A stretch of 64,000 bases of DNA from Cenarchaeum sp. (GCA_965206845.1 OZ242221.1:992001-1056000), one strand, 5' to 3'; counted from the stretch's first letter, positions 345-63,518 are shown. Numbers and translations are program-made. Notes: generated from the sequence alone by a model not told the origin.

Positions 345-384
345 CACTGTTCCCACAGCGATTCCACTAATATTTGAAGCTAAA

Positions 385-565
385 GGGAATTATATACAAA
401 AGTACACAGTACCTTTGCCTTTTGCTGGCGCTCTTGCAATCCCCCCCACGCTTGGCTCTCGCGTGTTGTCTGGGGAACGCCCGGGAGCAATCCCGCGCTG
501 GTGTCTCGCGTCTTTGGACGACCTTCCCGGCCGCCCTGCCGCCTTGGCTGTTGCCTTGGAGGCAA
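385..565 (-). ncRNA. Putative omegaRNA scaffold overlapping the tnpB 3' end (E1)
   Basis: Nucleotide sequence conserved across the three copies, with shared hairpins. Position at the element end downstream of RuvC-III is as expected for TnpB omegaRNAs. Boundaries approximate. Confidence 0.6.
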
Positions 566-2042
566 TGTTATACGCGGCATTGATGTCCGCGTTGACGTCA
601 TTCTCACATCTGTCATTGGTGCACCGGAACTCACCCCGCGACACCCTGGATTCCTTGTCGGTGCGGCCGCACCTGTGGCATGTGATGCTGGTGCCCTTGG
701 GGTCCACCATTACCACGATCACGCCGGCATTGGCGCACGCGCCCTTGATCAATCGTTGGAACGTCCCGGGCCTTGAGTAGGCCATCTCCCTGTTTAGCCC
801 CGTCTTGGCGGAGCTTCCCTTGCCCTTGGACTTGGCTGTCATGTTGTTGAGGCTGAGGTCCTCCATGGCCACCGTTCCCGCGCCGTCCGCTATCCTCTTG
901 GACGCGTGCCTTTCCCAGTTGGTCTGGCGGTTGGCAATCTTTTCCCTCTTTTTCCGGATCTTCCTGTGCAGCTCCTTGTAGCTTCTTGACTTGGTCTTCC
1001 TCGGCTTGTCCCTGTTGCGGCCGCTCGTGTTGTTCCCGCCGTTAGTGGTTTTGCTTCCACTGTCAGCATCTTCCTTACTGTCCTGTTTGGTGCGCCTGTT
1101 GCCGCGCCCCCCTCGCTTCCTTGAGATCTCGGAATACATCTTGGATATGTCGTCGTTCTTCGCCCTCCTGCAGTCCTTTGGGAGGTCGTGGAACCTGTGG
1201 CGGCCGGTATCGAGGTCCGCCGTGGCGGCGCCGTGCACTATGCCCATGTCCACGCCCCTGACGACCGTGGATTCGGACGGCTCCGGGGCCTTGGTTTCAA
1301 CCTGGATGTGGAGCCTGTACGTCCTGTGGCGGTCTTTGGTGCGTTTCGTGGTCTTCTTCGTCGTCTCGACGAGCTGGAAGGAGAGCATGTCAAGATCCTC
1401 CACATCGCCGTGCACCCTTACGGTGCCTATGCCGGGGAGCATCACCGTGTTGTCGCCCTTGTAGACGGGCTTCTCGAAGACCGAGAGGGACCGCTGCTCC
1501 CCCTTCCTCTTGAACAGGGAATCCCTGTGGCGCCACTTGTTCCTCTTGTTGCTCCACTTGTTCGACGGCAAATTTACAGCAGTGTCAATATCCGGTATCC
1601 CCTCCTTTTCCCGGTCGAGCCTAGCCAGGTACTTCCATAATGACTTGTTGCGGCGCTTTTTGCCGTTTGATATTACGAACTTTTGAACGGCATCCAGGCC
1701 CAGCAGGAGCCCCGCCCTCTGCGCAAGGAAGCCGCCCTCTATCCATTCCTTCCCATGTCTCCATCCGGTGAGCATCTTGTTGAGGTCAAACTTGGTTGTC
1801 CTCGGGTCGTCCAGCTTCTCCCGCACCGCCATGTTGAACGCCCACCGCTGCTGGTCCATTCGGCAGGATATGAGATCCGACAGCTCCGCCGACTGGTCAA
1901 AGTCCACCTTTATGTTGCGTATCATGATGCCCTCCATTGGGCGCCTTGACCACTTTTTTGGAGCCGGCTCGGTTGCGGCTGCGGTTGCGTCCGCCTGCTC
2001 CGTTGCTGTTGCTGCTACTACCTCTGCCATGACGGATTTCAT
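390..2042 (-). CDS. tnpB: TnpB/Cas12f-like RNA-guided endonuclease, 550 aa
   Basis: RuvC-I RGVDMG, RuvC-II AMEDL, Zn ribbon TSITCHRCG...CTNDRC, RuvC-III NADINAAYNI. Stop TAA lies inside the TIR. Confidence 0.9.
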   Translation of the reverse strand: MKSVMAEVVAATATEQADATAAATEPAPKKWSRRPMEGIMIRNIKVDFDQSAELSDLISCRMDQQRWAFNMAVREKLDDPRTTKFDLNKMLTGWRHGKEWIEGGFLAQRAGLLLGLDAVQKFVISNGKKRRNKSLWKYLARLDREKEGIPDIDTAVNLPSNKWSNKRNKWRHRDSLFKRKGEQRSLSVFEKPVYKGDNTVMLPGIGTVRVHGDVEDLDMLSFQLVETTKKTTKRTKDRHRTYRLHIQVETKAPEPSESTVVRGVDMGIVHGAATADLDTGRHRFHDLPKDCRRAKNDDISKMYSEISRKRGGRGNRRTKQDSKEDADSGSKTTNGGNNTSGRNRDKPRKTKSRSYKELHRKIRKKREKIANRQTNWERHASKRIADGAGTVAMEDLSLNNMTAKSKGKGSSAKTGLNREMAYSRPGTFQRLIKGACANAGVIVVMVDPKGTSITCHRCGRTDKESRVSRGEFRCTNDRCENDVNADINAAYNIASKATAKAAGRPGRSSKDARHQRGIAPGRSPDNTREPSVGGIARAPAKGKGTVYFCI

Positions 2043-2064
2043 TACGCATTCAATATGTCATACG

Positions 2065-2101
2065 TATAAAAACACCGCGACAACACCATGCAGACCATGC
2101 A
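2065..2101 (-). promoter_or_regulatory. Putative tnpB promoter (TATA-like box plus tandem TGCATGGT(C) repeats)
   Basis: TTTTTATA ~23 nt upstream of the ATG. The same cassette is present in E2, E3 and the remnant at 16199-16260. Confidence 0.55.
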
Positions 2102-2292
2102 AACAGTCCGCACCGCCGCGACCATTATTTCCGCCGCGCTTGCCTGTGCTGTTCCTCCAGCCACTGGCGCCGCGCCGGCATCTGGCAGGAATGGCGCGCC
2201 GGAAGGAAAGCCGGAAAATGATGAAAGCATTGTGTACTTTTGTATATAATTCCCAAGCTAAACGGTCGCAGCCGCGGATGCCCGGCCGGGCT

Positions 2293-3006
2293 TTACGGCG
2301 CCCCTATGAACTTGTGCATCTGAGGCACTATGCGAACATCCCTGTAGTGGGGCCACACCGCATCGTACAGCTCCATGAGCAGGTCAAGGCCGGGACTGCC
2401 GGCCCCGTATACCGGCTGAATGACAAAACCGGAGATGTCGCCTGCCGCGATGACGCCGAATACCTGCCCTGCCAGCTCCGCCATGTCCTCCCCGGTGGTG
2501 CGGGAGCTGACGACGACCTTGATGTACGTGTCTTTCTTTGATGTTACAGACAGCCTCAGGCACTCGAGGGCGTTCTTGACAAGATCCGGATAGTGCCCGT
2601 CATCTACAAAACCCGAGTCCCGGGTCTTGAACTCGATCTTTACCAGATCGATACTGGGCAGCACACGGGAGAATCTCGCCGAGTCAAAGCACGCCGACTC
2701 GAGGTAGACGGGTATGCCCTTTGACCTGACATACTCTGCCATCTCCGCCACCGCGTCAGGCTGCATCAGGGGATCGCCGCCGGTGAAATTCACCTTGTAG
2801 GTGTTCTGCTGCAGGTTCTGCCCGATGAGCCTGCAGGCCTCTGCCACAGGGTACTCGGTCCCGGAGTTGGACGGGAGCGCCTCTGCGGTATCGCAGTAAA
2901 AGCACGAAAACGGACACCCGGCCAGCCTGACGAACATGGTCTTTGTCCCGTACAGTATGCCCTCCCCCTCTATGGAGGTGAATATCTCAAACAGCCTTAC
3001 CTTCAA
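2293..3006 (-). CDS. queE: 7-carboxy-7-deazaguanine synthase (radical SAM)
   Basis: EIFTSIEGEG...FVRLAGCPFSCFYCDT, FTGGDPL, C-terminal PQMHK. Confidence 0.93.
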   Translation of the reverse strand: MKVRLFEIFTSIEGEGILYGTKTMFVRLAGCPFSCFYCDTAEALPSNSGTEYPVAEACRLIGQNLQQNTYKVNFTGGDPLMQPDAVAEMAEYVRSKGIPVYLESACFDSARFSRVLPSIDLVKIEFKTRDSGFVDDGHYPDLVKNALECLRLSVTSKKDTYIKVVVSSRTTGEDMAELAGQVFGVIAAGDISGFVIQPVYGAGSPGLDLLMELYDAVWPHYRDVRIVPQMHKFIGAP

Positions 3007-3149
3007 CAGTTATGTGGGCCTGTCCTGTCTATTTATTCGGCGCATCTACTCCCGGTGACGGGCCGATACCGCCGGGGCTCCACTGTGAAGCAACCTCCAA
3101 GATCGGTACAGGCCAGCCGGTTCCCGTCCCCGGGCCGCAAAAACCGGAG

Positions 3150-3356
3150 TCAGTGCATTACGGGCTCTTTTGTGTAAAAGAGGCCTGCGATGAAGAAGAC
3201 CACGCCAAGAATGCCGATCAGACTTCCCACAAACTCCAGGGTGCCGGTGAACTCGGGCTCCAGGGTAGGCCAGTAGGCTGCCATCAGCGCGCCCACCACG
3301 ATCATCGGAATTCCAACACCGGCAGTGATCGCTCTGGACGCCATGGCGTAAATCAC
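3150..3356 (-). CDS. Small two-TM membrane hypothetical protein
   Basis: 68 aa, two hydrophobic segments, AT-rich promoter-like sequence upstream. Confidence 0.7.
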   Translation of the reverse strand: MIYAMASRAITAGVGIPMIVVGALMAAYWPTLEPEFTGTLEFVGSLIGILGVVFFIAGLFYTKEPVMH

Positions 3357-3639
3357 CTGTAAAATGTATAATAGTTTTTGCGTCGTGGCGCTGCGGGGGT
3401 GTTGGGCCTGTCTGGATATTTTTGTCCACTTTGTGTAAATTTATGTGCAGGTGATGACGGATGCGGCCGAATGCAAGTCTGACCCGTGTTCGGTCCTGCC
3501 CATGGATCCGGCAATGTCTGGAAGGCGGGATCCATGGCGCAGGGCCGGATCGGCCGTCCGCCTCCGGATCCGGCCCGGGCGCGTTCGCGCCGGATCCAGA
3601 CGGTCGCACAGCCTAATGGCGTGTTGCATAATTCCTCCC

Positions 3640-3779
3640 AAGATGTGATTCGTAATTAGCACGCAGGCACATTAGAGCACGATCTTTGGCATAATCATAC
3701 GAAAGTTGCATGCTTTGGAGCACACATCTGTAAGATTATGGGCATCGAAGGCCCGATTCTTAATTGCGGATCATGTCTC
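3640..3779. mobile_element. 140-bp MITE-like repeat, family A, copy 1
   Basis: Near-identical to 16274-16413 and (inverted) 17301-17440; imperfect TIR (G/A)AGATGTGATTCGTAATTA / TAATTGCGGATCATGTCTC. Confidence 0.85.
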
Positions 3780-4381
3780 GGGACGCAGTCGTCCTGCAGC
3801 GCAAGTTCCGGCACAAGTTTGTCAACCCCGAGGGCATGCACGTCTTCTCGGTGATACAGAGCTTCAACAGGACATGCCGCAAGCTGGGACTCGTCCCCTG
3901 GATGTGCGTGGAAAAGATTGCGGAGAACCCGAACTACAACATATTCGAGGCCGGACCTGAGATGGCACGCGCGCCGGCGCCTCCGGCGGATGCGCCCGAG
4001 TCAGACACATTCTACGCGGAACAGGCCCTCGTCGCGCACCCGGCGGTCGGTGAAAGTGTAGCCGAGACGGAACGGCCCCCGGTCGGGGCACCCGCCGCAC
4101 CGCCGGATCAGTCACCTGCTACGTCCCACACGCCGGCCGGAGACAGGGCCGATACGGAAGCAGACCCGCACGGGTTCGTGCCCCCGCTGGCGGCAGGCCT
4201 GCGGCCGGGCAGCCGCGCCGCAATGACCCGCGTCCCATCTCTGCCTCGCGCCATAACCGATCCCGATCATGTGCCGTTTTACGGCAAGCCGCCGCCGGCA
4301 GTATCTGCCTGACGCTGCAAGATGACACCTGGTTGGCACGGCTAGCCGGAGGGGGACAAGTGCTTGGACCTGAGGATGTAC
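3780..4381 (+). pseudogene. IS66-like transposase C-terminal remnant with Pro/Ala-rich tail and probable element end
   Basis: RDAVVLQRKFRHKFVNPEGMHVFSVIQSFNRTCRKLGLVPW resembles the IS66 TnpC C-terminus (stop at 4312). 5' part is cut at MITE-A. End motif GGACCTGAGGATGTAC at 4366-4381. Confidence 0.65.
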
Positions 4382-4402
4382 CCTGAACAGTAACCAAAAT
4401 TC

Positions 4403-4495
4403 GTAAGCGTTCACGTCCCCTCTTGTTCCGTGCCTGTAGACAGGTCGACGTGGGCTGTAGTTAGGCGTGGATTAAGGGAGGACGTGAACACTTAC
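4403..4495. mobile_element. 93-bp IS66-type MITE (family B)
   Basis: TIR GTAAGCGTTCACGTCC / GGACGTGAACACTTAC; 8-bp direct repeat CAAAATTC at 4395-4402 and 4496-4503. Confidence 0.85.
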
Positions 4496-4531
4496 CAAAA
4501 TTCTATATTGCAATCCCATCTATCTTATGAT

Positions 4532-6169
4532 GTGGCTGCAAAAAAGGAATGGCGCGTAAAACCCAGCAAGGAGATGATACGGAGCACGTCCAATCCCCGC
4601 ATATACAAGAGCGGACAGTCCTATTACGCAGACGGAAAGGTGATATCGGCCTATATCGACGGGAACGCTCTGATGGCGGTCGTGTCGGGGGGGATGGAAT
4701 ACGACGTGATGATCATAAGTAAGGGTGACCAGTTCACTGCAAACTGCACCTGCCAGTTCAACAGTTACCTCTACTACGAAGCGTGCGAGCACACAATCGC
4801 CGTCCTGATGCACCTGACCGAGCACTTTGAGGAGATGCTGAGCGAAGCGGAATCCAGGAAGTCCACGATAGCCAACATGATCACCTTGGTGGCTCCGGGC
4901 AAGGCGCTAAAGTTTCTGGCGGATCTCATGGTGCACGACGGGGATGCACGGCAGGAGTTTGTCAAGAAGTTCAAGCTGGAGCATGTGCGTCCTATGGTAG
5001 ACCACAAGTCCGAGGTGGACCGGATGTACTATTACGCGGCAGAGTCAGACGGAAGTGTGCGCGAGGCACTGGACTTTGAGCGCTACTTTGCCAGGGCCAG
5101 GGAGAATCGGGACGGCGGCGGGGCCGCCGAGGCGACAAAGATGTACCGGGGGCTGTCAGAAGCGATATCCGGACATATGGGCACGGTGGACGACTCGAGC
5201 GGATACTACACGGACTGCTTCATAGAGGCACTGGAGAGCATGGCCGAGTCGATAGTCCGGGAGGATCTGCCGGCAGACAAAAAACGCGAGCACATTTTGT
5301 ATCTTTTTAAGAAGTTCATGGATGGGACGCCTGCAGAACTCGCCCAGCACTACCGCGGCGCTCTGGAGGCTGTGTGCATCGCAGACGATGACGCAGCGTG
5401 CCTGCGCGACATGATAAAGCCACGCCTGCGGAACGCCGGCAGTGGCAAGTCGGACAACACGACGGATCTTGTGCGCATGCAGGCCCACATTCTCGAGGGG
5501 CTGGGCCGGACAGCAGAACTCGAGACGCTTCTGGAGAAGTTCCACAGCCTGGACAGAGGGCTGTGCGTCATGTACCTTGACATGCTAAAGCACGCCGATC
5601 AGGACAAGGCCCGACAGGCGGCCCGGGATGCCACAGGTGCGTTTCCGGGCGATGTGCGTATAATGGGTGCGGCCCTGGAGCTCTATCCCAAGGCAGGTCC
5701 AGACTACGTCCCGGCGCTCAGAGATCTGTTTGCGGCAACGGGCGACTGGCGGTACTTTTTCAAGCTCGGGGAGGTGTCCACGGACTGGCATGCCGAGGTG
5801 GCAACCACTGCCAGCAACCTTTTGAGGAAGGGCGCCCCCGGCACGGCCGTCGACGCCTACCTGAAGGGGGGCATGGCCGGAGACGCCATGGATCTGCTTG
5901 AGTCGCTGGGGGATGTCGAGCTCTTCGCCGCGTACCGCACAAAGCTGGCCAAGGGCTATCCGGATAGGTACATTGCCGCGTACGGTGAGCATGCCAGGCG
6001 ATTTGCCAAGAGCAGAACCGGAAGGGATCACTACGAGCGCGTCCGCAAGCACCTCGCCAGCATAAAGGCAATTCCAGGCAGCGGCGACAGGTACGAGGGG
6101 CTGATGCGCCACATCAGGCTGGACAACCATAACAAGCGTGTCCTGCTGAAGATCATGGAGGATCTGTAG
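4532..6169 (+). CDS. SWIM zinc-finger protein with helical C-terminal region
   Basis: CTC...CEH SWIM motif (ANCTCQFNSYLYYEACEHTIAVL). The ORF-track start 4430 lies inside MITE-B, so GTG 4532 is preferred. Confidence 0.8.
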   Translation: MAAKKEWRVKPSKEMIRSTSNPRIYKSGQSYYADGKVISAYIDGNALMAVVSGGMEYDVMIISKGDQFTANCTCQFNSYLYYEACEHTIAVLMHLTEHFEEMLSEAESRKSTIANMITLVAPGKALKFLADLMVHDGDARQEFVKKFKLEHVRPMVDHKSEVDRMYYYAAESDGSVREALDFERYFARARENRDGGGAAEATKMYRGLSEAISGHMGTVDDSSGYYTDCFIEALESMAESIVREDLPADKKREHILYLFKKFMDGTPAELAQHYRGALEAVCIADDDAACLRDMIKPRLRNAGSGKSDNTTDLVRMQAHILEGLGRTAELETLLEKFHSLDRGLCVMYLDMLKHADQDKARQAARDATGAFPGDVRIMGAALELYPKAGPDYVPALRDLFAATGDWRYFFKLGEVSTDWHAEVATTASNLLRKGAPGTAVDAYLKGGMAGDAMDLLESLGDVELFAAYRTKLAKGYPDRYIAAYGEHARRFAKSRTGRDHYERVRKHLASIKAIPGSGDRYEGLMRHIRLDNHNKRVLLKIMEDL

Positions 6170-16017: not shown

Positions 16018-16273
16018 GGGAATTATATACTTCGGTAGGCATAACCGGGGAATTACATACAAAAGTAACCAAAATTCCTGCCTTTTTGGCGCTCCCTTTC
16101 GCGCGCCGTCCTTGTTAGATGCCGGCGCGTCATCCGTGGCGGCCGTAATCGCACGGACAAGCATAACGGGATGGATGGCCATGACAGTGCGGACTGTCCG
16201 CATGGTCTGCATGGTATTGTCGCGGCGCTTTTATGCGATGTGAAATATTGCATGTGGTAATGAAATCAATCAT
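16018..16273 (+). mobile_element. Truncated left arm of the TnpB-TIR element family (two stacked TIRs, promoter, first 5 codons)
   Basis: GGGAATTATATACTTCGGT (E2 type) at 16018, GGGAATTACATACAAAAGTA (E1 type) at 16048, conserved promoter cassette, ATGAAATCAATCATG (MKSIM) at 16260 cut at MITE-A. Confidence 0.85.
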
Positions 16274-16413
16274 GAGATGTGATTCGTAATTAGCACGCAG
16301 GCATATTAGAGCACGATCTTTGGCATAATCATACGAAAGTTGCATGCTTTGGAGCACACATCTGTAAGATTATGGGCATCGAAGGCCCGATTCTTAATTG
16401 CGGATCATGTCTC
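16274..16413. mobile_element. 140-bp MITE family A, copy 2
   Basis: Near-identical to 3640-3779. Confidence 0.85.
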
Positions 16414-17200
16414 TGAAGCCGAATAGTGCCTTTTCACACAGGATCAAGGGGAAATCACTGCAGGCGCTCGGGGACCACCGGGAGGCGGTAGCGGGCCTTG
16501 ATGAGTCGATAAGGCTGGATCCTAGGAACGCCCCTGCGCACGCGGCCAAGGGGAAATCGCTGCAGGAGCTCGGGAAGTACCGGGAGGCGGTAGCGTGCCT
16601 TGATGTAGCAGTTGGGCTGAACCCGGAATACTCCTTTGCGCATGCGACCAAGGGAATATCGCTGCAGGCTCTCGGAAGACGCCGGGAGGCGGTAGCGTGC
16701 TTTGATGAGACACTAAGGCTGGATCCGAAGAATGCCTTTGCATACGGAACCAAGGGAAGATCGCTACAGGAGCTTGGGAGATACGAGGAGTCGTTGACGT
16801 GCCTTGACAGGGCGGTAGATCTGAGCCCGAACTACCCCTTTGCGCACGTGGCCAAGGGAATATCACTGCAGGCGCTCGGAAGACACCGGGAGGCGATGGC
16901 GTGCCTTGATGAGGCAATTGGGCTGAAGCCGGACTACTTTGCGCATGCGACCAAGGAGAGACTGCTGCAGGGGCTCGGGAAGACGCCGGAAGGCGATAGC
17001 GTGCCCTGACGGGTCGATAAGGCTGGATCCGGCGAATGCCCATGCATGTGGGGCCAAAGTGCGTGTCGCTGTAGAGGCCTGGAAGCACCGGGAGGCGATA
17101 GCGTGCCTTGGTGAGGCAATGGCGCCTGATCCATCTTGTGCCTTTGTGCATGGGGCGTGCGAAGGCGGGTTTTCCGGCCTTGGCCCCGGAACAAGGCACT
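16414..17200 (+). pseudogene. Tetratricopeptide-repeat protein fragment (5' truncated, 3' frameshifted)
   Basis: About six 34-aa TPR units (AHATKGISLQALGR.REAVACLD....L.P) as ~102-bp tandem repeats to the stop at 17009; degenerate TPRs continue in another frame. Confidence 0.8.
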
Positions 17201-34674: not shown

Positions 34675-35151
34675 TCAGTTGAACGGGGCATCTGCCATTA
34701 TGACGTCCTCGTTGTTGAGAACGACTGCGTATGCCGTACTGCCAGATTCCAGCTCTATTGTCTGAAGTCCCGCGACGGTGCCATAGAATAGCGCATAGCC
34801 CGTCTCGCCATGCCTTACCTGGTCGTCATACAGCAGATAGTACTCGTCATTGCCTGTATCGATCAGGTAGGCAAGACCGTCAAGCGGCAACTCCTCAATT
34901 CCCACTATCTGTCCTGTCCCCTTTACTACCTGGCCCACGTACGAGTCGTTGTTCTCAACCAGTTCAGCATGGCTCACATCCCTTAGCGCTATCATATCCA
35001 GCTCCTCGTTTGAGATGCCCATGCCCATCTGCTCTTCTATTTCGCTCACGACAGCATACAGGAGTGCTGCGCCGGCTGCCACTATTACCCCAATGATAAC
35101 TCCGATAATGATGACTACCTTTACTGCCGTATGCACTACTGCACTCAGCAT
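34675..35151 (-). CDS. Membrane-anchored acidic hypothetical protein
   Basis: N-terminal TM then acidic beta-rich domain. Confidence 0.7.
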   Translation of the reverse strand: MLSAVVHTAVKVVIIIGVIIGVIVAAGAALLYAVVSEIEEQMGMGISNEELDMIALRDVSHAELVENNDSYVGQVVKGTGQIVGIEELPLDGLAYLIDTGNDEYYLLYDDQVRHGETGYALFYGTVAGLQTIELESGSTAYAVVLNNEDVIMADAPFN

Positions 35152-50938: not shown

Positions 50939-50941
50939 ATT

Positions 50942-54319: not shown

Positions 54320-54811
54320 TCACGCCGGGCTAGGCGCGGCCAGCCCTGCCGCGCTCCTCGACTCTGACTGCCTGCAGCAGTCGCCCATGGGGATGTCCAG
54401 GTCGTGGGGACACTTTCTTGGGTGGTTCAGCATGGTGCAGAGCGCGTCGGTAAACTGCTTGCTCATGTGGTGCTCGATCCCGCAGACCATCTCCTCGTCG
54501 ATGGCAAGCTTCATGGCGGAGCTCATCAGGACCTCCAGAAGCCTGCTGTTTCTCATCATGCCAGAGCCGATGCTCTCGCCATCGAGCGTCAGCTTGACGC
54601 CGGCCTTGTTGTAGTTTACCAGCTTCTGGCCGTTGAGCTTTTTGAGCATCTGCACCACGCTGGACTGCCTCACGTTGAGCATCTTGGCGATGGTGCTGAT
54701 CTTTACCGGGGTCTTGTTCTCCTTGAGGTGCCATATGGCCTTGAGGTACATCTCGACATGCTCTGCCTCTGCGGTGCCGACAAACAGAACCTCCTCGTCC
54801 AACTGATCCAT
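54320..54811 (-). CDS. DtxR/MntR-family metal-dependent regulator
   Basis: EMYLKAIW, HTH, IEH, P..CPH..IP. Confidence 0.88.
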   Translation of the reverse strand: MDQLDEEVLFVGTAEAEHVEMYLKAIWHLKENKTPVKISTIAKMLNVRQSSVVQMLKKLNGQKLVNYNKAGVKLTLDGESIGSGMMRNSRLLEVLMSSAMKLAIDEEMVCGIEHHMSKQFTDALCTMLNHPRKCPHDLDIPMGDCCRQSESRSAAGLAAPSPA

Positions 54812-54812
54812 G

Positions 54813-55580
54813 TCATATCTCCCTCGAGTCTTTTAATAAGTATTCAAAGTACTGCCGGGCAAACCCCGCCAGCCCCGCATGGTCAGCCCATATGGCAACG
54901 GTGTCCTTCAGGGAGCTGCTGCTGACCTCGGATCCCAGGAGTATCACCACGTATCGGCGATCCGATATGATGCCGCCGCCAAACAGGCCCTTCCTTACCT
55001 TGATCTGCGCAATGCGTGACCCGGCCTTGAGCGACTCCTCGTCCATCCGGTCCGACGTCAGGATGGTGATCTTCACGCCCCGGTCATAGAGCGCCCTGAG
55101 CTTCGGCAGCGCCTGTCTCACCAGGGCCTGCCCCGCCTCCGGGAGCGCGATCATCACCTCGCTCCGGCACGACTCGACCATCTCCAGCATCTTTGTGGCG
55201 ATGTTGACCGTCCCGGACAGGACCCAGATGTCGGGCCTCTCCCTGGTCCCGCTCTTCTCGTACAGGGGCATCAGCTCCCCCAGTATGACGCTCTGGCGCT
55301 CCGCAAACTCCGCCTCCATCTGTTGCTTGGCGGCCTCCATTATCATCGGGGGGGATCTGGCAAAGTAGTTGGTGGGCCGGGACTCGTCTGACTCGATCCA
55401 TCCCCTAGTCTTCATGGTGCCTAGCACCTCGTAGATCTTCGAGTAGGGCACGGCGGAGCTGCGGCTCAGGTTCAGGGCGTTCTGCTCCCCACGCTGCAGC
55501 AGTGACGTGAAGATCTTGATCTCATAGCCGGTCAGGCCGATCTTCTTGAGGGCCTCTCTGGTGCCGGGAGATATGCTCAC
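54813..55580 (-). CDS. TrmB-family transcriptional regulator
   Basis: GLTGYE, VPYSKIYEVL, RP..Y.A. Confidence 0.88.
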   Translation of the reverse strand: MSISPGTREALKKIGLTGYEIKIFTSLLQRGEQNALNLSRSSAVPYSKIYEVLGTMKTRGWIESDESRPTNYFARSPPMIMEAAKQQMEAEFAERQSVILGELMPLYEKSGTRERPDIWVLSGTVNIATKMLEMVESCRSEVMIALPEAGQALVRQALPKLRALYDRGVKITILTSDRMDEESLKAGSRIAQIKVRKGLFGGGIISDRRYVVILLGSEVSSSSLKDTVAIWADHAGLAGFARQYFEYLLKDSREI

Positions 55581-55689
55581 GCCACCTCTCGGCCTGCCTG
55601 TCTATTTAACTATCGTTTGTTTTCCTACAAAACCACCGGTGTGTGGTCGGAAAGCGATTATATATGATTATTTTGATTGCTAAACAGTA

Positions 55690-57354: not shown

Positions 57355-57605
57355 ACCAGAACACTGCGTCTTCAGATTTTGATGGATCGGTTTGTGTTTG
57401 GGCGCCATCGGCCTGTGTACCCGGAAAGGATGCGGTTCCTGCGTCCTGTGCATGGATGTCCCCGCACTGGCACCCGTGCCATGCCGGTTTTGCGCTCTGG
57501 ACGAGGCAGCCCATTGGTTAGAGGGCTCACCAATGCGGGCCAAACGCCATAAAATTCATCCCGCCGGGCTCCGGGGAGCCGCCTGCTGGCCGATCCGTAA
57601 AAAAA

Positions 57606-59551
57606 GGGAATTATATACTTCGGTTACAGAACCGTTGCCTTTTTCTGGTGCTCTGTCGATCCCTCCCACTCGTGGCTCTTGCGTGATGTCTGTGGAGCGG
57701 ACTGGGCAGCCCTGTCATGGAATCCCGCGCCAGGCAGGCGACAAGGATGGCTATGACGGTATGGACAGTCTGCATGGTCTGCATACTAATGACAGTGTTG
57801 CCGCGGCGCTTTTATGCGGTGTGGCATATTGCATGCGGTAATGAAATCAATCGATATGGTGGCAACGGCGCTGGTAACGGTACCGGCGCCAGAAGCGAAA
57901 GCGAAACCGGCAAGGGAGGACACGGTGATCCGCACAATAAAGGTGGACTTTGGCCAGTCCGTGGCGCTGTCAGAGCTCATATCGCGCCTCATTGTGCAGC
58001 AGCGGTGGGCATACAACGTGGCCGTAGAGGAGATGCTGAATGACCCGACAGTAAGCAAATTTGATCTCAACAACAAGCTCACCGCGTGGAGGCAGAAGCA
58101 CGACTGGCTTGACGGCAACGTCTCTGTGCAACGGGCCGGGCTTGCCCAGGGAAGGGATGCCGTGCTGAAGTTTCTGGAATCAAACACTACAAAGCGCGCC
58201 CGCAGGATCATGTGGAAAGACAAATCCAAGAAATATAGAGAAAATAAAACGGAAAAAAATGACAAGAGGCTCAGGGAAGACGGAGATGGCGCCGGCGCAA
58301 ACCTGTCCCTGACCCCATGGAGTGGCAGAAAGAACAGGTGGAGCCACGAAAGCGACCTGTACAGGGCAAGGGGCGACAGGCAGGCGCTGTGTGTGTTTGG
58401 AAAGCCCGTGCAAAAGGACAACAACAGGATCATGCTACCGGGCATCGGCACAGTAGGCGTGCACGGCGAGATGATGGAATGGGACATGCGATCCTTCCAG
58501 CTTGTGGAGACAACCAAAAGGATCACCAGGCGCACCAGGGACCGCGACCGGACATACCGCCTCCACGTCAATGTCCGCATCAGAAAGCCCCGACCGGTGG
58601 AGTGTGATATAGTCCGTGGTGTCGACATGGGGATTGTCCACAACGCGACAACTGTGGACCTTGACACAGGCTACACGGAGTTCCACGACATGCCCAAGGA
58701 CTGCAGGAGGTCAAAGAACGATGAGGTATCGCGGATGCAGGCGGAGCTCTCAAGGAAGCGTGGAGGCAGCGGCAACCGGCGCATCAGGCAGAATGGTAAA
58801 GGCGACTGTCCCGGCAATGCCAGCATCAACGGCGGCACCAATGGGGACGGGAACGGCAGTAACAGCAAGCCGGGCAAATCGGGCAAGCAATGCAAGACCG
58901 TCGGGCCGAACCGCATCAACAGAAAGGCCAAGCGCGACAGGCCAAGGAAGCCCAAATCACGAAGTTACAAGGATCTGCAAAGGAAGATACAAAAAAAGCG
59001 GGAAAAGGTCGCCAACCGCCAGACGAACTGGGAGCGCCACGCGTCAAAGAAGATAGCCGACGGCGCCGGCACGGTGGCCATCGAGGATCTGAATATCAAA
59101 AACATGACGGCCAGGGCCAAAGGCAGTGGAAGCTCCGCCAAGAACGGCCTCAACCGCGAGATGGCATACTCCAGGCCGGGGACGTTCCAAAGGCGGATCG
59201 AGGGCGCATGCGCGAACGCCGGCGTGAAGGTAATCTCCGTTTATCCGGGGGGCACGAGCACCACATGCTACATGTGCGGCCGCAGGGACAAAGGCTCCCG
59301 CGTGTCGCAGGCCGAGTTCATATGCACGAATCACAAATGCGAATGCCACATCAACGCGGACGTCAATGCCGCGTATAACATTGCCGCCAGGGCGGCGGCA
59401 GGGCGGCGGGGAACGTCGTCCAAAGGCGCGAGATTCCAGGCCGGGATTGCTCCCGGACGCTCCGCAAACAACACGCAAGAGCCACGCGTGGGAGGGATCG
59501 CCGGAGCGCCAGAAAAAGGCAACGGTTCTGTAACCGAAGTATATAATTCCC
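57606..59551 (+). mobile_element. TIR-bounded, TnpB-carrying non-autonomous transposon (copy E2)
   Basis: TIR perfect for 43 bp (GGGAATTATATACTTCGGTTACAGAACCGTTGCCTTTTTCTGG), extending imperfectly to ~95-100 bp; flanks TAAAAAAA / TAAATAGG (no exact TSD). Confidence 0.9.
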
Positions 59552-59715
59552 TAAATAGGCTTCAAAACAATAGATCAGCAAGGTGTCCATGGGAGAAGAC
59601 TATCCGGAGTATGGTGAGGAGATCGGGTCCGCAGAGGTGCCAGAGGCAGACCCCTACAATTCCGACGTATTTGCAGAACCGGGACAGGCTCGGCACGATC
59701 CGGATATGGATCTGA
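57841..59715 (+). CDS. tnpB: TnpB/Cas12f-like RNA-guided endonuclease, 624 aa (reads through the element end)
   Basis: RGVDMG, AIEDL, TSTTCYMCG...CTNHKC, NADVNAAYNI; start MKSID homologous to E1/E3. Confidence 0.88.
   Translation: MKSIDMVATALVTVPAPEAKAKPAREDTVIRTIKVDFGQSVALSELISRLIVQQRWAYNVAVEEMLNDPTVSKFDLNNKLTAWRQKHDWLDGNVSVQRAGLAQGRDAVLKFLESNTTKRARRIMWKDKSKKYRENKTEKNDKRLREDGDGAGANLSLTPWSGRKNRWSHESDLYRARGDRQALCVFGKPVQKDNNRIMLPGIGTVGVHGEMMEWDMRSFQLVETTKRITRRTRDRDRTYRLHVNVRIRKPRPVECDIVRGVDMGIVHNATTVDLDTGYTEFHDMPKDCRRSKNDEVSRMQAELSRKRGGSGNRRIRQNGKGDCPGNASINGGTNGDGNGSNSKPGKSGKQCKTVGPNRINRKAKRDRPRKPKSRSYKDLQRKIQKKREKVANRQTNWERHASKKIADGAGTVAIEDLNIKNMTARAKGSGSSAKNGLNREMAYSRPGTFQRRIEGACANAGVKVISVYPGGTSTTCYMCGRRDKGSRVSQAEFICTNHKCECHINADVNAAYNIAARAAAGRRGTSSKGARFQAGIAPGRSANNTQEPRVGGIAGAPEKGNGSVTEVYNSLNRLQNNRSARCPWEKTIRSMVRRSGPQRCQRQTPTIPTYLQNRDRLGTIRIWI
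59381..59551 (+). ncRNA. Putative omegaRNA scaffold (E2)
   Basis: Hairpins at 59402-59420 and 59441-59456 show compensatory changes relative to E1/E3. Confidence 0.6.
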
Positions 59716-60014
59716 TCGAGCAGCTGAACCCCGTAGAGACCAAGGAGGGTGAAAAGATCGGCAAGAGCCAGTGCAAAAAAATCTGCTATGGGTTCAGGGC
59801 CATCAAGCCGCCCCGGCGTGGGCGCTACTCGTCGGGCCAGGTAAGGTGCATGATCTGTGACATCTTCATAAGCCGGGAGGGGTGCGCCGACAAGAGCGGG
59901 AACACCGCAACCCCGGAGGCCATGGGGCTGTTCTGCAAGTGCTGCGGGTACAGGGTGCGTACCAAGCCCAGGGCAAGCATATACAAGCAAAAGTTCAACA
60001 GGGATATCCAATAG
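59589..60014 (+). CDS. Cys-rich Zn-binding hypothetical protein
   Basis: CKKIC, CMIC, CKCCG.RVRTKPR. Confidence 0.75.
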   Translation: MGEDYPEYGEEIGSAEVPEADPYNSDVFAEPGQARHDPDMDLIEQLNPVETKEGEKIGKSQCKKICYGFRAIKPPRRGRYSSGQVRCMICDIFISREGCADKSGNTATPEAMGLFCKCCGYRVRTKPRASIYKQKFNRDIQ

Positions 60015-60083
60015 GGGGATACCCATTGCGGCAAAAAACCGCCGAACAAAAAACTTAACTTGAGACGGATCGTACCCTCTGAC

Positions 60084-60530
60084 GTGAAGCTGACCAGCCA
60101 GACGTTTCAAGACGGATCCGAGATTCCCAGGAGGTGCGGCTACAAGACAAAAAACGTCAGCCCCGCCCTGCATGTCAGCGACATCCCGCCGGGCACGAGA
60201 TCGCTTGCGCTGGTGATGGATGATCCTGACGCCATGAAGCCTGCAGGCAAGGTCTGGGTGCACTGGCTCGTGTGGGGCATAGGCCCGGCAGCCGCCGGGG
60301 TTGCCGAAGGCTCCGCCTTTGACGGCGCCGTGGAGGGGAAGACCGACTTTGGCAGTACGGGATACGGCGGACCGGCCCCACCGGACGGGAGGCACACATA
60401 CGTCTTCAAAATCTATGCGCTGGACGCCAGGCTGAGCCTTGCTGGCGGGGCCAGAAAGCCGGAGCTTGAGGGCGCCATCAAGGGACATGTCATCGGGCAG
60501 GCGGTCCTGAAGGGAACCTTTGCCCCCTGA
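60084..60530 (+). CDS. YbhB/YbcL (PEBP) family protein
   Basis: NVSP.L, DDPDA, WVHW, YGGPAPP, H.Y.F..YALD. Confidence 0.92.
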   Translation: MKLTSQTFQDGSEIPRRCGYKTKNVSPALHVSDIPPGTRSLALVMDDPDAMKPAGKVWVHWLVWGIGPAAAGVAEGSAFDGAVEGKTDFGSTGYGGPAPPDGRHTYVFKIYALDARLSLAGGARKPELEGAIKGHVIGQAVLKGTFAP

Positions 60531-60712
60531 CTGCGATCCGCCGGGCTCTCGCTGCGCGCCCCCCGCACACGGCAGCCCCATGCCAAAAAACTCAATTAGG
60601 AACGTGGCGGGGTTAGGGCGCGGGCATTGATGAGCATATCCCTCTGATTGGTGATGTGGATCTTGAGTTCTGAGCCTGCTGATTTTTATGGCAGACCGCG
60701 CATGCGGCAGGT

Positions 60713-61132
60713 GTGAAATCGCTGACACGGTACCTCAGATACGAGACAAAGACCCGCAGGGAGTTCGTCAACATAACGCCGGAGGTCGAGGCACTGGTCA
60801 GGGAGAGCGGGATCCGGGAGGGGCTCTGCCTGGTCAACGCGATGCACATCACTGCCAGCGTCTTCATCAACGATGACGAGGGCGGGCTCCACCGCGATTA
60901 TGAGCAGTGGCTTGAGGGGCTCGCCCCGCACGAGCCCACAGACGCGTACCTGCACAACCGGACCGGCGAGGACAACGCGGACGCCCACCTGAAGCGGCAG
61001 GTCATGGGCAGGGAGGTCGTCGTGGCGGTTACGGGCGGCGCGCTGGACTTCGGCCCGTGGGAGCAGATCTTCTACGGTGAGTTTGACGGAAGGAGATCCA
61101 AGCGCGTGCTGGTGAAGATAATCGGCGAGTGA
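60713..61132 (+). CDS. yjbQ: YjbQ/UPF0047 family protein
   Basis: [28 protein letters not shown]. Confidence 0.92.
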
Positions 61133-61133
61133 C

Positions 61134-61298
61134 CTATCCAAAGTCCACGTCGCGCTTCTGGCTCTGCCCCTCGTTCTTCCTGGCTGCCGCGCGAAACTTG
61201 TCGCTGTGGTTTTGTGGCCCGTGGCCGCACTTTACGCAGGCAATGAGGTACCCGTTGGTGTTCTTCTGGTATGTCTCGCAACCGCAAAAGCAGGCCAT
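61134..61298 (-). CDS. Small Cys-rich hypothetical protein (54 aa)
   Basis: Below the ORF-track cutoff; MACFCGC...CVKCGHGPQNH; ATATAT box ~25 nt upstream. Confidence 0.6.
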   Translation of the reverse strand: MACFCGCETYQKNTNGYLIACVKCGHGPQNHSDKFRAAARKNEGQSQKRDVDFG

Positions 61299-61338
61299 GT
61301 GATCTGCTGGAGTGCCGGTTGATATATCTCTTGAGAAA

Positions 61339-61519
61339 GGGAATTATATACATGAGTGTACAGTACCCATGCCTTTTGCTGGCGCTCTTGCATTGCCTCC
61401 CACGCTTGGCTCTCGCGTGTTGTTTGCGGAACGCGCGGGAGCAATCCCGCGCTGGCTTCTCGCGCCTTCAGACGACGATCCCCGCCGCCCTGCCGCCAAG
61501 GCTTTCGCCTTGGAAGCAA
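61339..61519 (-). ncRNA. Putative omegaRNA scaffold (E3)
   Basis: CCAAGGC-GAAA-GCCTTGG and GCGCGGGA-TTGC-TCCCGCGC hairpins; conserved with E1/E2. Confidence 0.6.
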
Positions 61520-63113
61520 TGTTATGCGCCGCGTTTATGTCGGCGTTGACGTCATTGTAACAGTTGTCATTGGTGCAGCGGAACCTGCCCTGCGATGTGC
61601 GGGATTCCTTGTCCTTGCGCCCACAAGCGCTGCATGTTATGCTGGTGCCCTTGGGGTCCACCATAATTACAGTCACTCCGGCGTTCGCGCACGCCTGCCC
61701 GATCTGCTTTTGGAACGTTCCGGGCCGGGAATAGGCCATCTCCCTGTTTAGCCCCGTCTTGGCGGATCTTCCCTTGCCTTTGACCTTGGCGGTCATGTTG
61801 TTTAGGTTGAGATCCTCCATGGCCACGGTTCTGGCGCCATCGGCTATCTTCTTTGACGCGTGCCTTTCCCAGTTGGTCTGGCGGTTGGCTATCTTCTCGC
61901 GCTTCTTGCGGATCTTCCTTTGGAGTTCCTTATAGCTGCGGGACTTTGGCTTCCTTGTCTTGTTTTTGTTGTGGCCTCTGGTGTTGTTGGTGTTGCTGCT
62001 GCTGCCGCTTCTCGTGTTGTTGGTGCTGCTGCTGCCGCCGCTGCCGTTGGTGCCGTTCCCGAAGTCCGCGTCCTTGCTCCCGCCACCAGAGTCTTCATTG
62101 GTGTCCTGCCTGATCCTGCGGTTGCCCCTCCCGCCGCGCTTCTGAGAGAGCTCGGAGTACATCCTGGACAGGTCGTCGTCCTTGGAGCGCCTGCAGTCCT
62201 TTGGGAGGTCGTGAAATTTATGATGGCCGGTGCCGAGGTCTGCCGTGGCGGCGCCGTGGACTATGCCCATGTCCACGCCCCTTACGACCGCGGATTCAGA
62301 CGGCTCCGGGGCCTTGGTTTCGACCTGGATGTGGAGGCGGTACGTCCTGTTATGGTTCTCCGTGCGCTTCGTGGCCCTCTTCGTCGTCTCCACCAATTGG
62401 AATGATCGCATGTCCAATTTCTCCACGTCGCCGCGCACTCTCACGGTGCCGATTCCCGGTAGCATCACCATGTTGTCGCCTTTGTATACTGGCTTCTCAA
62501 ACACCGAGAGTGACCGCTGCTCCCCTTTCCTCTTGAACAGGTCATTGGTGTGGCTCCATTCGTTCCTCTTGTTGCTCCACTTGTTTGACGGCAGGTTTGA
62601 CGCGGTGTAGATGTCGATGTCCGGTATCCCCTCCTTTTCCCGGTCCCGTCTGGCCAGGTGTTTCCACAGGGACTTGTTGCTGCGCTTTTTCCCGTTGGAT
62701 GCCATGAACTTCTTTACGGCGTCCATGCCCAGCAGGAGGCCGGCCCTCTGCACCATGCAGCTGCAGGCCTCATTGCGTCCGGCGGCCCGCGCCTCCTTGT
62801 CATGGACGAGCCACGCCTTTGAGTTTCTCCATTTCGTTAGCATGTTGTTGAGGTCAAACTTGGTTGTCCTCGGGTCTTTCAGCTTCCCGCGCACGGCCAT
62901 GTTGAAGGCCCACCTCTGCTGGTCCATGTGGCGGGATATGAGATCCGACAGCTCCGCCGACTGGTCAAAGTCCACCTTTATGTTGCGGACCATTATGCCT
63001 TCCATTGAGCGTTTTGACCACTTTTTTGGAGCCGGCTCGGTCGCGGCAGCGGTTGCATCTGCTACCGCCGGCTCCGTTGCTGTTATTGCCGTTGCCGTCA
63101 TGATGGGTTTCAT
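61344..63113 (-). CDS. tnpB: TnpB/Cas12f-like RNA-guided endonuclease, 589 aa
   Basis: RGVDMG, AMEDL, TSITCSACG...CTNDNC, NADINAAHNI; stop inside the TIR. Confidence 0.9.
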   Translation of the reverse strand: MKPIMTATAITATEPAVADATAAATEPAPKKWSKRSMEGIMVRNIKVDFDQSAELSDLISRHMDQQRWAFNMAVRGKLKDPRTTKFDLNNMLTKWRNSKAWLVHDKEARAAGRNEACSCMVQRAGLLLGMDAVKKFMASNGKKRSNKSLWKHLARRDREKEGIPDIDIYTASNLPSNKWSNKRNEWSHTNDLFKRKGEQRSLSVFEKPVYKGDNMVMLPGIGTVRVRGDVEKLDMRSFQLVETTKRATKRTENHNRTYRLHIQVETKAPEPSESAVVRGVDMGIVHGAATADLGTGHHKFHDLPKDCRRSKDDDLSRMYSELSQKRGGRGNRRIRQDTNEDSGGGSKDADFGNGTNGSGGSSSTNNTRSGSSSNTNNTRGHNKNKTRKPKSRSYKELQRKIRKKREKIANRQTNWERHASKKIADGARTVAMEDLNLNNMTAKVKGKGRSAKTGLNREMAYSRPGTFQKQIGQACANAGVTVIMVDPKGTSITCSACGRKDKESRTSQGRFRCTNDNCYNDVNADINAAHNIASKAKALAAGRRGSSSEGARSQRGIAPARSANNTREPSVGGNARAPAKGMGTVHSCI

Positions 63114-63518
63114 TACCGCATGCAAATGCCAAATATGTATAAAAACACCGTGGCAATACCATGCAGACCATGCGGACCGTCCGTGCCGTCACGGCCATCA
63201 GGGAGTGGCAGGTTGCAGGCGCCCAGATGGGAGTGGATACTGTGTGGAGAGACCCGAACAAAAACCCTATCCGAGGGCAGCGTATGGCCATGTTTGCCGT
63301 ATATGATTCCCCGCGCCAGGGACGGAAAAACATGAACGGGACAACCCTGCCGGCCATACTAGAGGGGCATTCCGATCTCTTTGACAACAGAAACAGGACA
63401 TATCGCTTGGATCAACAGGCACTGCGGTTTGCATGCAGACGTTCACTCAACTATATAATCCCCTTGAGAAACGGCCCGCCCGCCACAAGTTCATATCCTG
63501 CGTCGGCGTACCCGATCC

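Follow-up and report, generated by a model that had tools for sequence, protein, structure and literature searches.

How does a gene for an RNA-guided nuclease spread through a genome in elements that have the inverted ends of a transposon and no transposase of their own? TnpB, the ancestor of Cas12, is thought to prevent the loss of IS605 and IS607 elements after their scarless excision. The question is raised here by the window, the whole stretch of 64,000 nt that was analysed (OZ242221.1, 992001–1056000), which comes from a sponge-associated ammonia-oxidising archaeon, Cenarchaeum sp., with a genome assembled as a single contig, 99.99% complete. The window contains three tnpB-bearing elements (E1, E2 and E3) with terminal inverted repeats (TIRs). 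The reading that we favour, to which we would give a probability of roughly 0.7, is that these are non-autonomous cut-and-paste elements (mobile insertion cassettes) belonging to a DDE transposon lineage of the IS1595 family, having as their sole cargo a complete OMEGA module.

Cassettes, ends and target sites

E1 is a complete cassette of 1870 bp on the minus strand (385–2254; genome positions 992385–994254), lying between a gene for GTP cyclohydrolase I on one side and a radical-SAM (QueE-like) gene on the other. Its TIRs (GGGAATTATATACAAAAGTACACA; 385–408 and 2231–2254) are perfect over 24 nt, and the target-site duplication (TSD), AAGCTAAA, is present as exactly matching copies at 377–384 and 2255–2262. 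E3 (61339–63463, minus strand; 2125 bp) is likewise bounded by exact copies of TTGAGAAA (61331–61338 and 63464–63471), and contains an inner, second left-end-like site (63300–63311) with no matching TSD. The inverted ends of E2 (57606–59551, plus strand) extend over ~113 nt, and its TSD is degenerate, the flanks TAAAAAAA and TAAATAGG agreeing at five of eight positions. Analysis of the ends confirmed what had been said of these elements from the sequence alone: that they are 1.9–2.1 kb in length with GGGRATTATATA inverted ends, and that E1 and E3 are flanked by exact 8-bp duplications. A remnant reported at 16018–16273 also proved real, and resolves into two nested left-end fragments on the plus strand: a truncated one directly 3' of a tRNA gene (16018–16046) and, nested in it and then itself truncated, a second (16048–16273) comprising TIR, 5' leader, candidate promoter and start region, with 73% identity to E1 2028–2254. 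Allowing one mismatch at most, GGGRATTATATA occurs at nine sites in the window against 0.19 expected, a number reached in none of 100 shuffles.

A genome-wide scan for such ends, followed by end pairing, gave 15 TIR elements. Ten have exact 8-bp TSDs (two random 8-mers match exactly with a probability of 1.5e-5 per pair), two have one mismatch and one has two mismatches; a clean TSD is absent for E2 and for the element at genome position 1075256. Exact 8-bp TSDs were also found outside this genome, around an element in the strain L052 and around three further elements and one MITE in the genome G310. The tabulation bears out the abundance that had been taken to suggest a genome-wide expansion, but the term itself is misleading, because nucleotide identity never exceeds 84% for any pair of copies (divergence between copies is 16–25%). 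This low copy-to-copy identity is a new feature of the present set.

Are the insertions, then, simply old? An empty queE–folE allele with a single homologous 8-mer, AAGCTGAC, of the kind envisaged in the sequence-only reading, is present in another genome of the same genus (G001). In L052, which is 99% identical, an extra element stands between two copies of TAACGTAG, at a site that is empty here and has a single TAACGTAG. A contig from run X16 joins position 376 to 2255 with eight ambiguous letters, as an empty E1 site would, its shorter side being only 22 letters long and under the caution level of 30. Conversely, a site that is empty here (CCATAGAA, 34781–34788, plus strand, preceded by a G at 34780) is filled in another population: a 132-nt contig in a sponge metatranscriptome library (X19) consists of 117 nt of right end and 15 nt corresponding to window positions 34781–34795. 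Cassette insertions are thus polymorphic, both between genomes with 99% identical flanks and inside sequenced populations, and metrics based on copy identity would score the cassettes as immobile in spite of this polymorphism between strains.

These observations bear on the proposal that the cassettes are immobile fossils whose TnpB persists because it serves the host, perhaps as a defence nuclease or an RNA-guided regulator, and not because it maintains the transposon. The absence of any copy pair above 84% identity, which gives no indication of a recent replicative burst, would fit such a proposal, as would the purifying selection on TnpB in every intact copy. It is opposed by the insertion polymorphism just described, by the exact TSDs of 10 of the 15 elements, which would not be expected if the insertions were as old as the 16–25% divergence of the copies, and by the intact catalytic residues of the protein, in contrast to the known regulatory derivatives of TnpB, in which these residues are not intact. 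We consider it very improbable that the cassettes are fossils.

The probable OMEGA module

In every full copy there is a single long ORF, matched by the Pfam families Cas12f1-like_TNB and OrfB_IS605, and no transposase. The tnpB gene of E1 (390–2042, minus strand) encodes 550 aa and has its TAA stop codon within the terminal repeat; that of E3 occupies 61344–63113, and the E2 ORF (57814–59715) continues past the right end into the flank. Residues D265, E394 and D486 and four zinc-ribbon cysteines are invariant in the 10 intact copies, in agreement with the earlier description of a lone tnpB-like gene with its RuvC D-E-D and zinc ribbon intact, and across 50 diverse homologues their conservation is 90% or more; the motifs GvDlG, vEdL and hADvNAA can be aligned with TnpB and Cas12f chains of solved structure. 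Scores against PF07282 (the TNB domain, with the zinc ribbon) are 51–57 bits for a cut-off of 26.3, and a profile built from the family aligns with the whole of ISDra2 TnpB (8h1j/8exa; residues 5–379, E 7e-43). Judged by profile the cassette protein is a typical TnpB, and judged by its residues the nuclease is catalytically intact. All 16 TNB-domain matches in the genome are members of this cassette family, and over 45 pairs the tnpB core has a dN/dS of 0.21, the mark of purifying selection.

The last ~190 nt of the cassettes form a conserved, covarying, structured RNA-like module that extends into the terminal repeat; in E1 it occupies 385–575 (minus strand), overlapping the 3' tail of tnpB and the TIR. 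In a 15-copy alignment, 10 of the 43 predicted pairs show compensatory changes, 97.5% of cells are paired compared with 33–52% when the alignment is slid, and the covariation score is 0.236 compared with 0.122 after shuffling, a value matched by none of 500 shuffles. Invariant G–U pairs indicate the tnpB-sense strand for the predicted RNA. Synonymous divergence is 0.18 in the right-end tail and 0.79 in the tnpB core, and the dN/dS of the tail is 1.2, an indication that constraint there is at the level of nucleotides and not of protein. The same right-end architecture is found in elements from two other genera, and the module has no match to an Rfam family. A weak hint of the RNA comes from two metatranscriptome libraries: contig depth over the right end was 81 and 476, compared with ~4–110 for the tnpB body, in contigs ~10% different from E1 and from libraries that may hold DNA, and such depth cannot rank the parts of a gene. 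At the other end of the cassette, a TATA-like box (TTTTTATAC in the tnpB sense; 2064–2072, minus strand, in E1) lies ~25–30 nt before the start region, itself conserved (GTAATGAAA); present in 12 of the 14 elements examined, it is probably an archaeal promoter. The OMEGA module would comprise the TnpB gene, expressed from a promoter of its own that lies in the left end, and then a putative omegaRNA scaffold that overlaps the tnpB 3' tail, passes through a hairpin inside the right TIR and stops only at the element's final base; the guide would thus come from the TSD and right flank.

A proposed transposase acting in trans

What moves such a module? A solo tnpB with an omegaRNA (putative in the cassettes) at its 3' end is reminiscent of the IS1341-type members of IS200/IS605, and it might be supposed that the cassettes belong there and are moved as single strands by TnpA in trans, the more so as OrfB_IS605 matches part of the protein. 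However, IS1341-type elements, whose hairpins are subterminal, depend on an HUH TnpA in cis or in trans and have neither TIRs nor a TSD, and the cassettes are their opposite in these last three respects, with perfect TIRs, 8-bp TSDs that are matched by empty sites, and no TnpA in the genome; IS200/IS605 and IS607 elements alike are described as having neither TIRs nor TSDs (PMC13565253). The Y1 TnpA domain (PF01797) has no match in this complete single-contig genome, control genomes being positive, and we attach almost no credence to IS1341-type membership. Membership of IS607 is contradicted by the lack of any match in the genome to the serine recombinase/resolvase domain (PF00239), for which 12 of the 14 controls were positive.

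The evidence leads instead to IS1595. Exactly one gene in the genome matches PF12762 above the cut-off. Its ORF is intact, encodes 309 aa and has the zinc ribbon of IS1595 at the N-terminus, and of 24 positions in the end upstream of it 19 agree with a cassette TIR; a decayed second copy adjoins GGGAATTATATACA..., of which the first 14 nt are identical to the E1 TIR. Both copies sit ~50 nt inside a cassette-type end. IS1595 genes in two related genera, represented by the genomes G018 and G016, have GGGAATTATATAC or GGGGATTATATAC ~55–60 nt upstream, and identical end cores of 13–14 nt adjoin IS1595 genes in all three genomes. On contig C69 of G018 a single unit brings together a degenerate left end, a pseudogene of IS1595, a fragment from the 3' part of tnpB and a right end; right ends in that genome are imperfect at best. 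Both the intact and the decayed transposase gene lie elsewhere than in the cassettes, none of which encodes DDE_Tnp_IS1595, and the cassettes are for this reason regarded as derivatives and not as autonomous members of the family. Their 8-bp TSD, and TIRs starting with GG that they have in common with the ends near DDE_Tnp_IS1595 genes, are IS1595 traits, and the cassettes may belong to its ISNwi1 subgroup, as the end consensus and direct-repeat length given for that subgroup in the sequence-only reading would suggest.

The sequence-only reading had looked to an intact IS1595 gene bounded by cassette TIRs. One matching end was found, but no second recognisable end for the single intact gene, and in none of the genomes could an IS1595 copy be defined that combines a TSD with matching ends on both sides; mobilisation of a transposase-less cassette in trans by an IS1595-type enzyme, as that reading proposed, is therefore supported short of proof, as something that we infer. 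Might the mover be a DDE transposase of some other family, encoded by an unrecognised gene or only in other strains, with ends that merely share ancestry with those of IS1595? The intact IS1595 gene has, after all, only its one end, different from the cassette TIR at five of 24 positions, and the genome also has seven near-identical copies of DDE_Tnp_1 and some IS66-like fragments. Nevertheless, the DDE_Tnp_1 and IS66 genes that occur within cassettes belong to other IS elements, multi-copy or fragmentary, that have inserted into them. Cassette-type ends lie constantly ~50–60 nt upstream of IS1595 genes (twice here, and in G018 and G016), and an 8-bp TSD with GG termini is the signature given for IS1595 and Merlin (PMC8101967). 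A mover from outside the IS1595 family thus seems unlikely. In the IS1595 reading, an IS1595-type transposase acting in trans would bind the ~13–24 nt GGGAATTATATAC... ends and insert the cassette with an 8-bp stagger.

Relatives of the cassettes and the flanking G

The sequence-only reading took it as established that the canonical hosts of TnpB lack TIRs, and the view of TnpB hosts as TIR-less is now outdated. In a PNAS paper of 2023 (PMC10691335), Altae-Tran et al. reported six DDE-associated TnpB branches, DDE-1 to DDE-6, with inverted terminal repeats, the 3' end of tnpB being no more than 250 bp from the element end, and solo TnpBs whose flanking ends resemble those of relatives that carry a transposase, a pattern that they read as probably reflecting mobilisation in trans. 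The cassettes resemble these in carrying TnpB within inverted ends, as solo copies. IS630, for DDE-6, is the only family named in the main text of that paper; IS1595 has no occurrence there (the clade may stand in its Figure 4 or supplementary tables), and TSDs are not discussed in its passages on these branches. A 2026 review lists ISL2, IS630 and IS1031 as DDE families with TnpB (PMC13565253). The novelty claimed for the cassettes is accordingly reduced, DDE-linked TnpBs with inverted repeats and trans-mobilised solo copies having been reported in 2023. The IS1595/Merlin superfamily, in which IS1595 is the relative found in prokaryotes and Merlin the one found in eukaryotes (PMC8101967), would join the TnpB-linked DDE families beyond those named in that main text.

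IS1595 was described along with IS copies bearing passenger genes (Siguier, Gagnevin and Chandler, 2009, cited in PMC3129680); the cassettes differ from the family in having no transposase and, as passenger, a probable OMEGA module. As transposase-less units they resemble MICs and MITEs, which have the IRs of a cognate IS at their ends and are activated in trans (PMC3129680), and MITE-size derivatives with cassette ends and exact 8-bp TSDs do occur, in G310 and on one metagenome contig. The difference from MICs and MITEs is that the cargo would itself be a system for maintaining mobile elements, its predicted RNA using the cassette end as 3' boundary. Fanzors provide a further parallel, being TnpB-family nucleases whose guide RNA, within TIR- and TSD-bearing DDE transposons, reaches into the terminal repeat (PMC13565253, PMC10312701); the cassettes differ in having an archaeal host and a protein that is by profile a typical TnpB.

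How, or whether, TnpB maintains DDE transposons that leave a break and duplicate their target is discussed in the 2026 review (PMC13565253). For the cassettes, TnpB with its omegaRNA would cut the emptied or naive allele with its single 8-mer, and recombination would then restore the cassette copy, by analogy with IS605-type TnpB. For the latter, restoration of a copy by recombination after cutting of the emptied allele has been shown. A small complete archaeal genome containing 15 diverged cassettes with defined ends, with empty as well as filled alleles on record, only one candidate transposase and an orientation-specific flank signature that yields a TAM prediction, offers a natural system in which to test this.

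The flank signature is a G directly 5' of the left-end TSD in 16 of 16 elements. It is seen in the tnpB-sense orientation only, the right end showing no mirror-image counterpart; it is new here and may be a TAM. That the invariant G, followed by T or C as first duplicated base, is the TAM of the cassette TnpB is a tentative idea, which we think more probably wrong than right. If it is true, the transposon would insert almost anywhere and be kept only at sites where a TAM happens to lie in front of the 8-mer; the guide (TSD and right flank) would direct TnpB to the emptied allele and spare the occupied one, in which the TAM position is taken by the C of ...ATTCCC. RNA-guided homing would then be explained for a cut-and-paste element that makes TSDs, as would the occurrence of each copy as a separate old lineage, one copy per genome.

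Cassettes of the window and of the genome

Each of the three full cassettes in the window contains a single long ORF, matching Cas12f1-like_TNB and OrfB_IS605, and none contains a transposase gene. E1 (385-2254), which has a GTP cyclohydrolase I gene and a radical-SAM QueE-like gene as its neighbours, has perfect 24-nt inverted ends with AAGCTAAA on each side; E3 (61339-63463) has TTGAGAAA at both flanks; and in E2 (57606-59551) the inverted ends extend for about 113 nt and the flanks agree at only five of eight positions. A remnant (16018-16273) comprises two left-end fragments, one nested in the other, adjoining a tRNA gene. When ends, flanks and ORFs were rechecked, the sequence-only reading proved to have described all four accurately. 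With at most one mismatch, GGGRATTATATA occurs nine times in the window (0.19 expected), a count reached in 0 of 100 shuffles.

Some minor features of these copies may be mentioned here. In the E2 tnpB (57814-59715) a single base differs in the loop of the terminal hairpin, which removes the usual stop in the terminal repeat, and the frame continues for about 55 codons into the flank. The sequence truncating the remnant (window 16270-16400) is a repeat of about 130 bp also found in another retrieved locus (L008 880-1020, at about 1466140 in the genome); its window copy is upstream of a gene for a TPR-repeat protein (16398-17009). One contig from sequencing run X9 connects the terminal repeats of E1, 404 to 2229, omitting 1824 bases (side of 22), and this joint may be either an ends-only mini-derivative or an assembly artefact at inverted repeats. 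In a comparison of RNA and DNA reads, stretches of E1 had no coverage in X19 and X20.

The host genome is one contig of 1.65 Mb (57% GC). Genome-wide pairing of ends within 3.5 kb of each other gave 17 rows, representing 15 separate elements, full or nearly so, a derivative of 706 bp and an alternative inner pairing of E3. The 8-bp TSDs are exact in 10 of the 15 elements, which bears out on the genome scale what had been seen in the window; there is one mismatch in two elements, two in one and three in E2, and the element at 1075256 has no duplication. All 25 protein segments revealed by tblastn of the genome fall within cassettes or cassette fragments, and all 16 TNB-domain matches come from the cassette TnpB family.

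The nearest neighbour of each cassette is 75-84% identical in nucleotide sequence, and no pair in the genome is closer than 84%. Since 10 of the 15 TSDs are perfect despite this divergence, the insertions are far more recent than the branching of the element lineages. A lineage seems to survive as one mobile copy, without amplification; it looks as if separate old lineages are each kept single within a genome, a pattern that agrees with cut-and-paste transposition and restoration of the copy. Unlike the diverged TnpB cassettes, an IS encoding a DDE_Tnp_1 transposase of 342 aa has been recently active, its seven copies (870769-871794 and six other places) being 94-100% identical. One of them lies in the cassette at 870565, where its ORF was considered as the cognate transposase and rejected, as belonging to a separate, nested IS. 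Counting this one, two cassette copies contain nested insertions of other IS elements, the second being in L052, a contig of a 99%-identical strain.

TnpB and an RNA-like right end

The cassette proteins had been recognized from sequence as TnpBs with a RuvC D-E-D and a zinc ribbon, and this identification holds: ten intact copies show 60-80% identity to E1, and in all of them D265, E394, D486 and the CxxC...CxxxxC cysteines are invariant, these residues being at least 90% conserved among 50 diverse homologues. The family profile aligns full length with ISDra2 TnpB (8h1j, 8bf8/8exa; E 7e-43), and also aligns with Cas12f chains. At 550-600 aa the proteins are above the size of typical TnpBs, owing to a variable low-complexity insert between RuvC-I and RuvC-II. 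A pairwise dN/dS of 0.21 for the core (45 pairs; median dS 0.79) indicates purifying selection on TnpB in all lineages. A library of 1.84 billion representative proteins gave 4391 matches at E <=0.001 and 31 at E <=1e-30, so the cassette TnpBs form a narrow subfamily. No close relative was found outside this genome among 60 relatives, 300 genomes of the family and 400 of the class (these sets being samples of species representatives), nor was a relative found by a protein-pattern scan of metagenomes; close homologues are present in the protein collection, on contigs of 1.6-2.5 Mb. A TATA-like box and start region, conserved in the left end of 12 of the 14 elements examined, suggest that a tnpB promoter is located there.

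At the other end of the element, the terminal 190 nt or so are far better conserved than the remainder, and look, from their aligned sequences, like an omegaRNA scaffold. RNAalifold gave 43 pairs in seven helices, with compensatory changes at 10 pairs; under this fixed structure 97.5% of cells pair, and after sliding of the partners by 1-3 columns the figure is 33-52%. The covariation score (0.236, against 0.122 for shuffled alignments) was equalled by 0 of 500 shuffles, but related sequences may surpass shuffles without any structure, and because kinship alone can do this it is the slid controls and the compensatory pairs that bear the argument. The structure can be assigned to the tnpB-sense strand, since several of its invariant G-U pairs would read C-A in the complement. 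The final hairpin lies inside the terminal repeat; 13 unpaired bases (GUAUAUAAUUCCC) separate it from the flank. The TAA within the terminal repeat serves as the tnpB stop in 9 of 15 copies, and over the 42 codons that overlap the module dS is 0.18 and dN/dS 1.2, which points to constraint on nucleotides and not on protein. An equivalent layout is found in elements of two related genomes (G018 and G310), whose TnpBs are 27-47% identical to that of E1. No Rfam family was assigned to the module: a gathering-threshold run over the whole window returned only SRP RNA and three tRNAs, and a permissive run on 300-2400 one chance match (E 4.6). Library contigs of the right end had depths of 81 and 476, compared with about 4-110 over the gene body, although such depths cannot rank parts of the gene.

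IS1595-type ends and a candidate transposase

Neither a Y1 TnpA nor a serine recombinase was found in the genome, in searches that were positive for control genomes. Exactly one DDE_Tnp_IS1595 match in the genome is above the cut-off, an intact ORF of 309 aa with the IS1595 zinc ribbon. The sequence-only reading had proposed a search for such a gene within cassette-type TIRs; the gene is there, and so is one end, GGGGCTTATATCGCTGAGTACACA, 53 bases upstream of the gene start and agreeing with a cassette TIR at 19 of 24 positions, but a second end was not found by an inverted-repeat search and loose motif scans (genome 20-36 kb). Downstream of the gene, where the second IS end would be expected, repeats of about 26-28 nt (GGCTCTGGTAAATTCTAGTGATCT-like; L001 1060-1320) form a cluster, inverted relative to one another. 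The decayed N-terminal fragment of a second IS1595 gene adjoins GGGAATTATATACACAAGTAGC, the first 14 nt of which are those of the E1 repeat, and in the related genomes G018 and G016 GGGAATTATATAC or GGGGATTATATAC is located about 55-60 nt ahead of IS1595 genes. Among the G018 copies similarity ceases at the stop codon, the sole right-end candidate being an imperfect GGCAATTCCTATATAAAAATCA in L007, without a TSD. A single 1458-bp unit on G018 contig C69, with flanks agreeing at five of eight positions, combines a degenerate left end and a right end with an IS1595 pseudogene and a 3' fragment of tnpB; it may be what is left of a composite element, or else a nested insertion.

Duplications of 8 bp and GG termini are described as a signature of IS1595 and its eukaryotic relatives, Merlin (PMC8101967). 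The cassettes are best seen, on these likenesses of sequence, as probable non-autonomous derivatives of an IS1595-type element, presumably moved by this genome's own IS1595 enzyme. The original observation is confirmed and its interpretation is supported; mobilisation in trans and RNA-guided homing are inferred.

Ends of the same family, in G310 and G282, enclose TnpBs of a different subfamily (about 27% identity to E1), and the 8-bp duplications are exact in the element pairs L080 (TAAAAAAA) and L082 (AATTCAAT); MITE-size derivatives in these genomes also have exact TSDs (ATGTTAAC, TTTCATAT). Since ends of one family surround TnpBs in related genera, the link between end type and TnpB is old, extending over at least three genera. 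A metagenome scan with a right-end DNA pattern gave three stretches, none a TnpB right end; one was a 616-bp MITE (L078 2530-3145) with GGGAATTATATACTTGACTCCCA-type ends and an exact 8-bp TSD (CTTTTTTA), so the end family is present beyond the genomes studied. In G310 an IS1595 transposase gene adjoins a 372-aa TnpB of another type (L074 4151-8040). This locus was rejected as a composite element: the tnpB is bounded by different inverted repeats, of about 30 nt (GGTTCTGTTGGGTTAACGGGTGTTGA...), and a tRNA gene, immediately upstream of the transposase gene, separates this gene from the end.

In its general principle the finding has precedents. Altae-Tran et al. (2023; PMC10691335) reported six branches of TnpB associated with DDE transposases, each having inverted terminal repeats, together with solo TnpBs inside ends like those of transposase-bearing relatives, suggesting mobilisation in trans; IS630 is the only DDE family named in the main text of that paper. 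A 2026 review lists ISL2, IS630 and IS1031 as DDE families and treats the scarcity of prokaryotic DDE-OMEGA pairs as needing explanation (PMC13565253). IS1595 is named neither in that main text nor in the DDE context of the review, and we found no literature linking TnpB to IS1595 or to ammonia-oxidising archaea, although the supplements of PMC10691335 may list the clade. The IS1595 family was itself first described along with IS forms bearing passenger genes, and transposase-less cassettes activated in trans are a known class, MICs (PMC3129680). What is added is a further DDE family, in an archaeal symbiont, and the novelty of TnpB-IS1595 cassettes is moderate; the documentation of this pairing reaches TSDs, empty sites and RNA covariation.

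Empty sites and a flanking G

L052 carries a 4167-bp cassette copy between two copies of TAACGTAG, and its sequence to either side of the insertion shares 99% identity with this genome, where the site is uninterrupted and has a single TAACGTAG. G001, a genome of the same genus, has a spacer of about 105 bp between the two genes that border E1, with one AAGCTGAC at the homologous place; this is the empty queE-folE allele with a single 8-mer expected by the sequence-only reading. A contig from run X16 joins window position 376 to 2255, with eight ambiguous letters and a shorter side of 22 letters; the 1878 bases skipped are E1 plus one duplication, a hint that the joint marks an empty E1 site. 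Lastly, a 132-nt contig from a sponge metatranscriptome library consists of 117 nt of right end and 15 nt equal to window 34781-34795, a site that is empty in this genome. Taken together, these four sites show cassette insertions to be polymorphic among very close genomes.

The L052 record, a 31-kb contig labelled as a Dehalococcoidia MAG, is probably mis-binned (it matches the archaeal genome at 975292-980869, with 99% identity outside the insertion). Its cassette holds an IS66-family transposase gene, rejected as the cognate transposase because it is a nested insertion of a separate IS, and its tnpB is disrupted by a MITE-like repeat of about 229 bp (L052 5363-5591), which has at least five copies in the genome that are 92-97% identical (at about 523996, 1111261, 1117375, 1345389 and 1515095).

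With 16 elements (the 15 of this genome and that of L052) set in the orientation of tnpB, every one has G immediately 5' to its left-end duplication (probability 1.9e-9 by base composition, or 4e-7 corrected for 224 tests). Thirteen duplications begin with T and three with C, and at the mirror position, past the duplication of the right end, 5 of 16 elements have C, which is the background level. The independently recovered site at 34781 is likewise preceded by G. In TnpB systems the guide begins directly after the right end, so this G would be the TAM-proximal base in the empty allele; once the allele is filled, its place is taken by the C of ...ATTCCC. It may be, then, that the G is the TAM of TnpB, acting through differential retention. 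It is also possible that it reflects an asymmetric target preference of this genome's transposase, and the presence of G at both IS1595-linked left ends here speaks for that preference and against a TAM; on the other hand, C, T, A and T stand at this position beside four IS1595-only left ends (in G018 and G016), and three sites with exact TSDs in another genus (g13), where the TnpB subfamily is about 27% identical, have T, A and T. These differences favour the TAM reading, and led us to reject the G as universal to the end family, but the present data fit retention through a TAM and transposase preference alike and do not separate them. The TAM-like G and the pattern of one copy per lineage are the parts most worth pursuing.

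Some further flanks were read by eye. In 12-nt flanks inspected in this way, without a script, G precedes the nested fragment at 16048 and four left-end-like termini (genome 938659, 976525, 1079757 and 1178755), left-end status being uncertain for two of these. The outer remnant at 16018 has A at -1.
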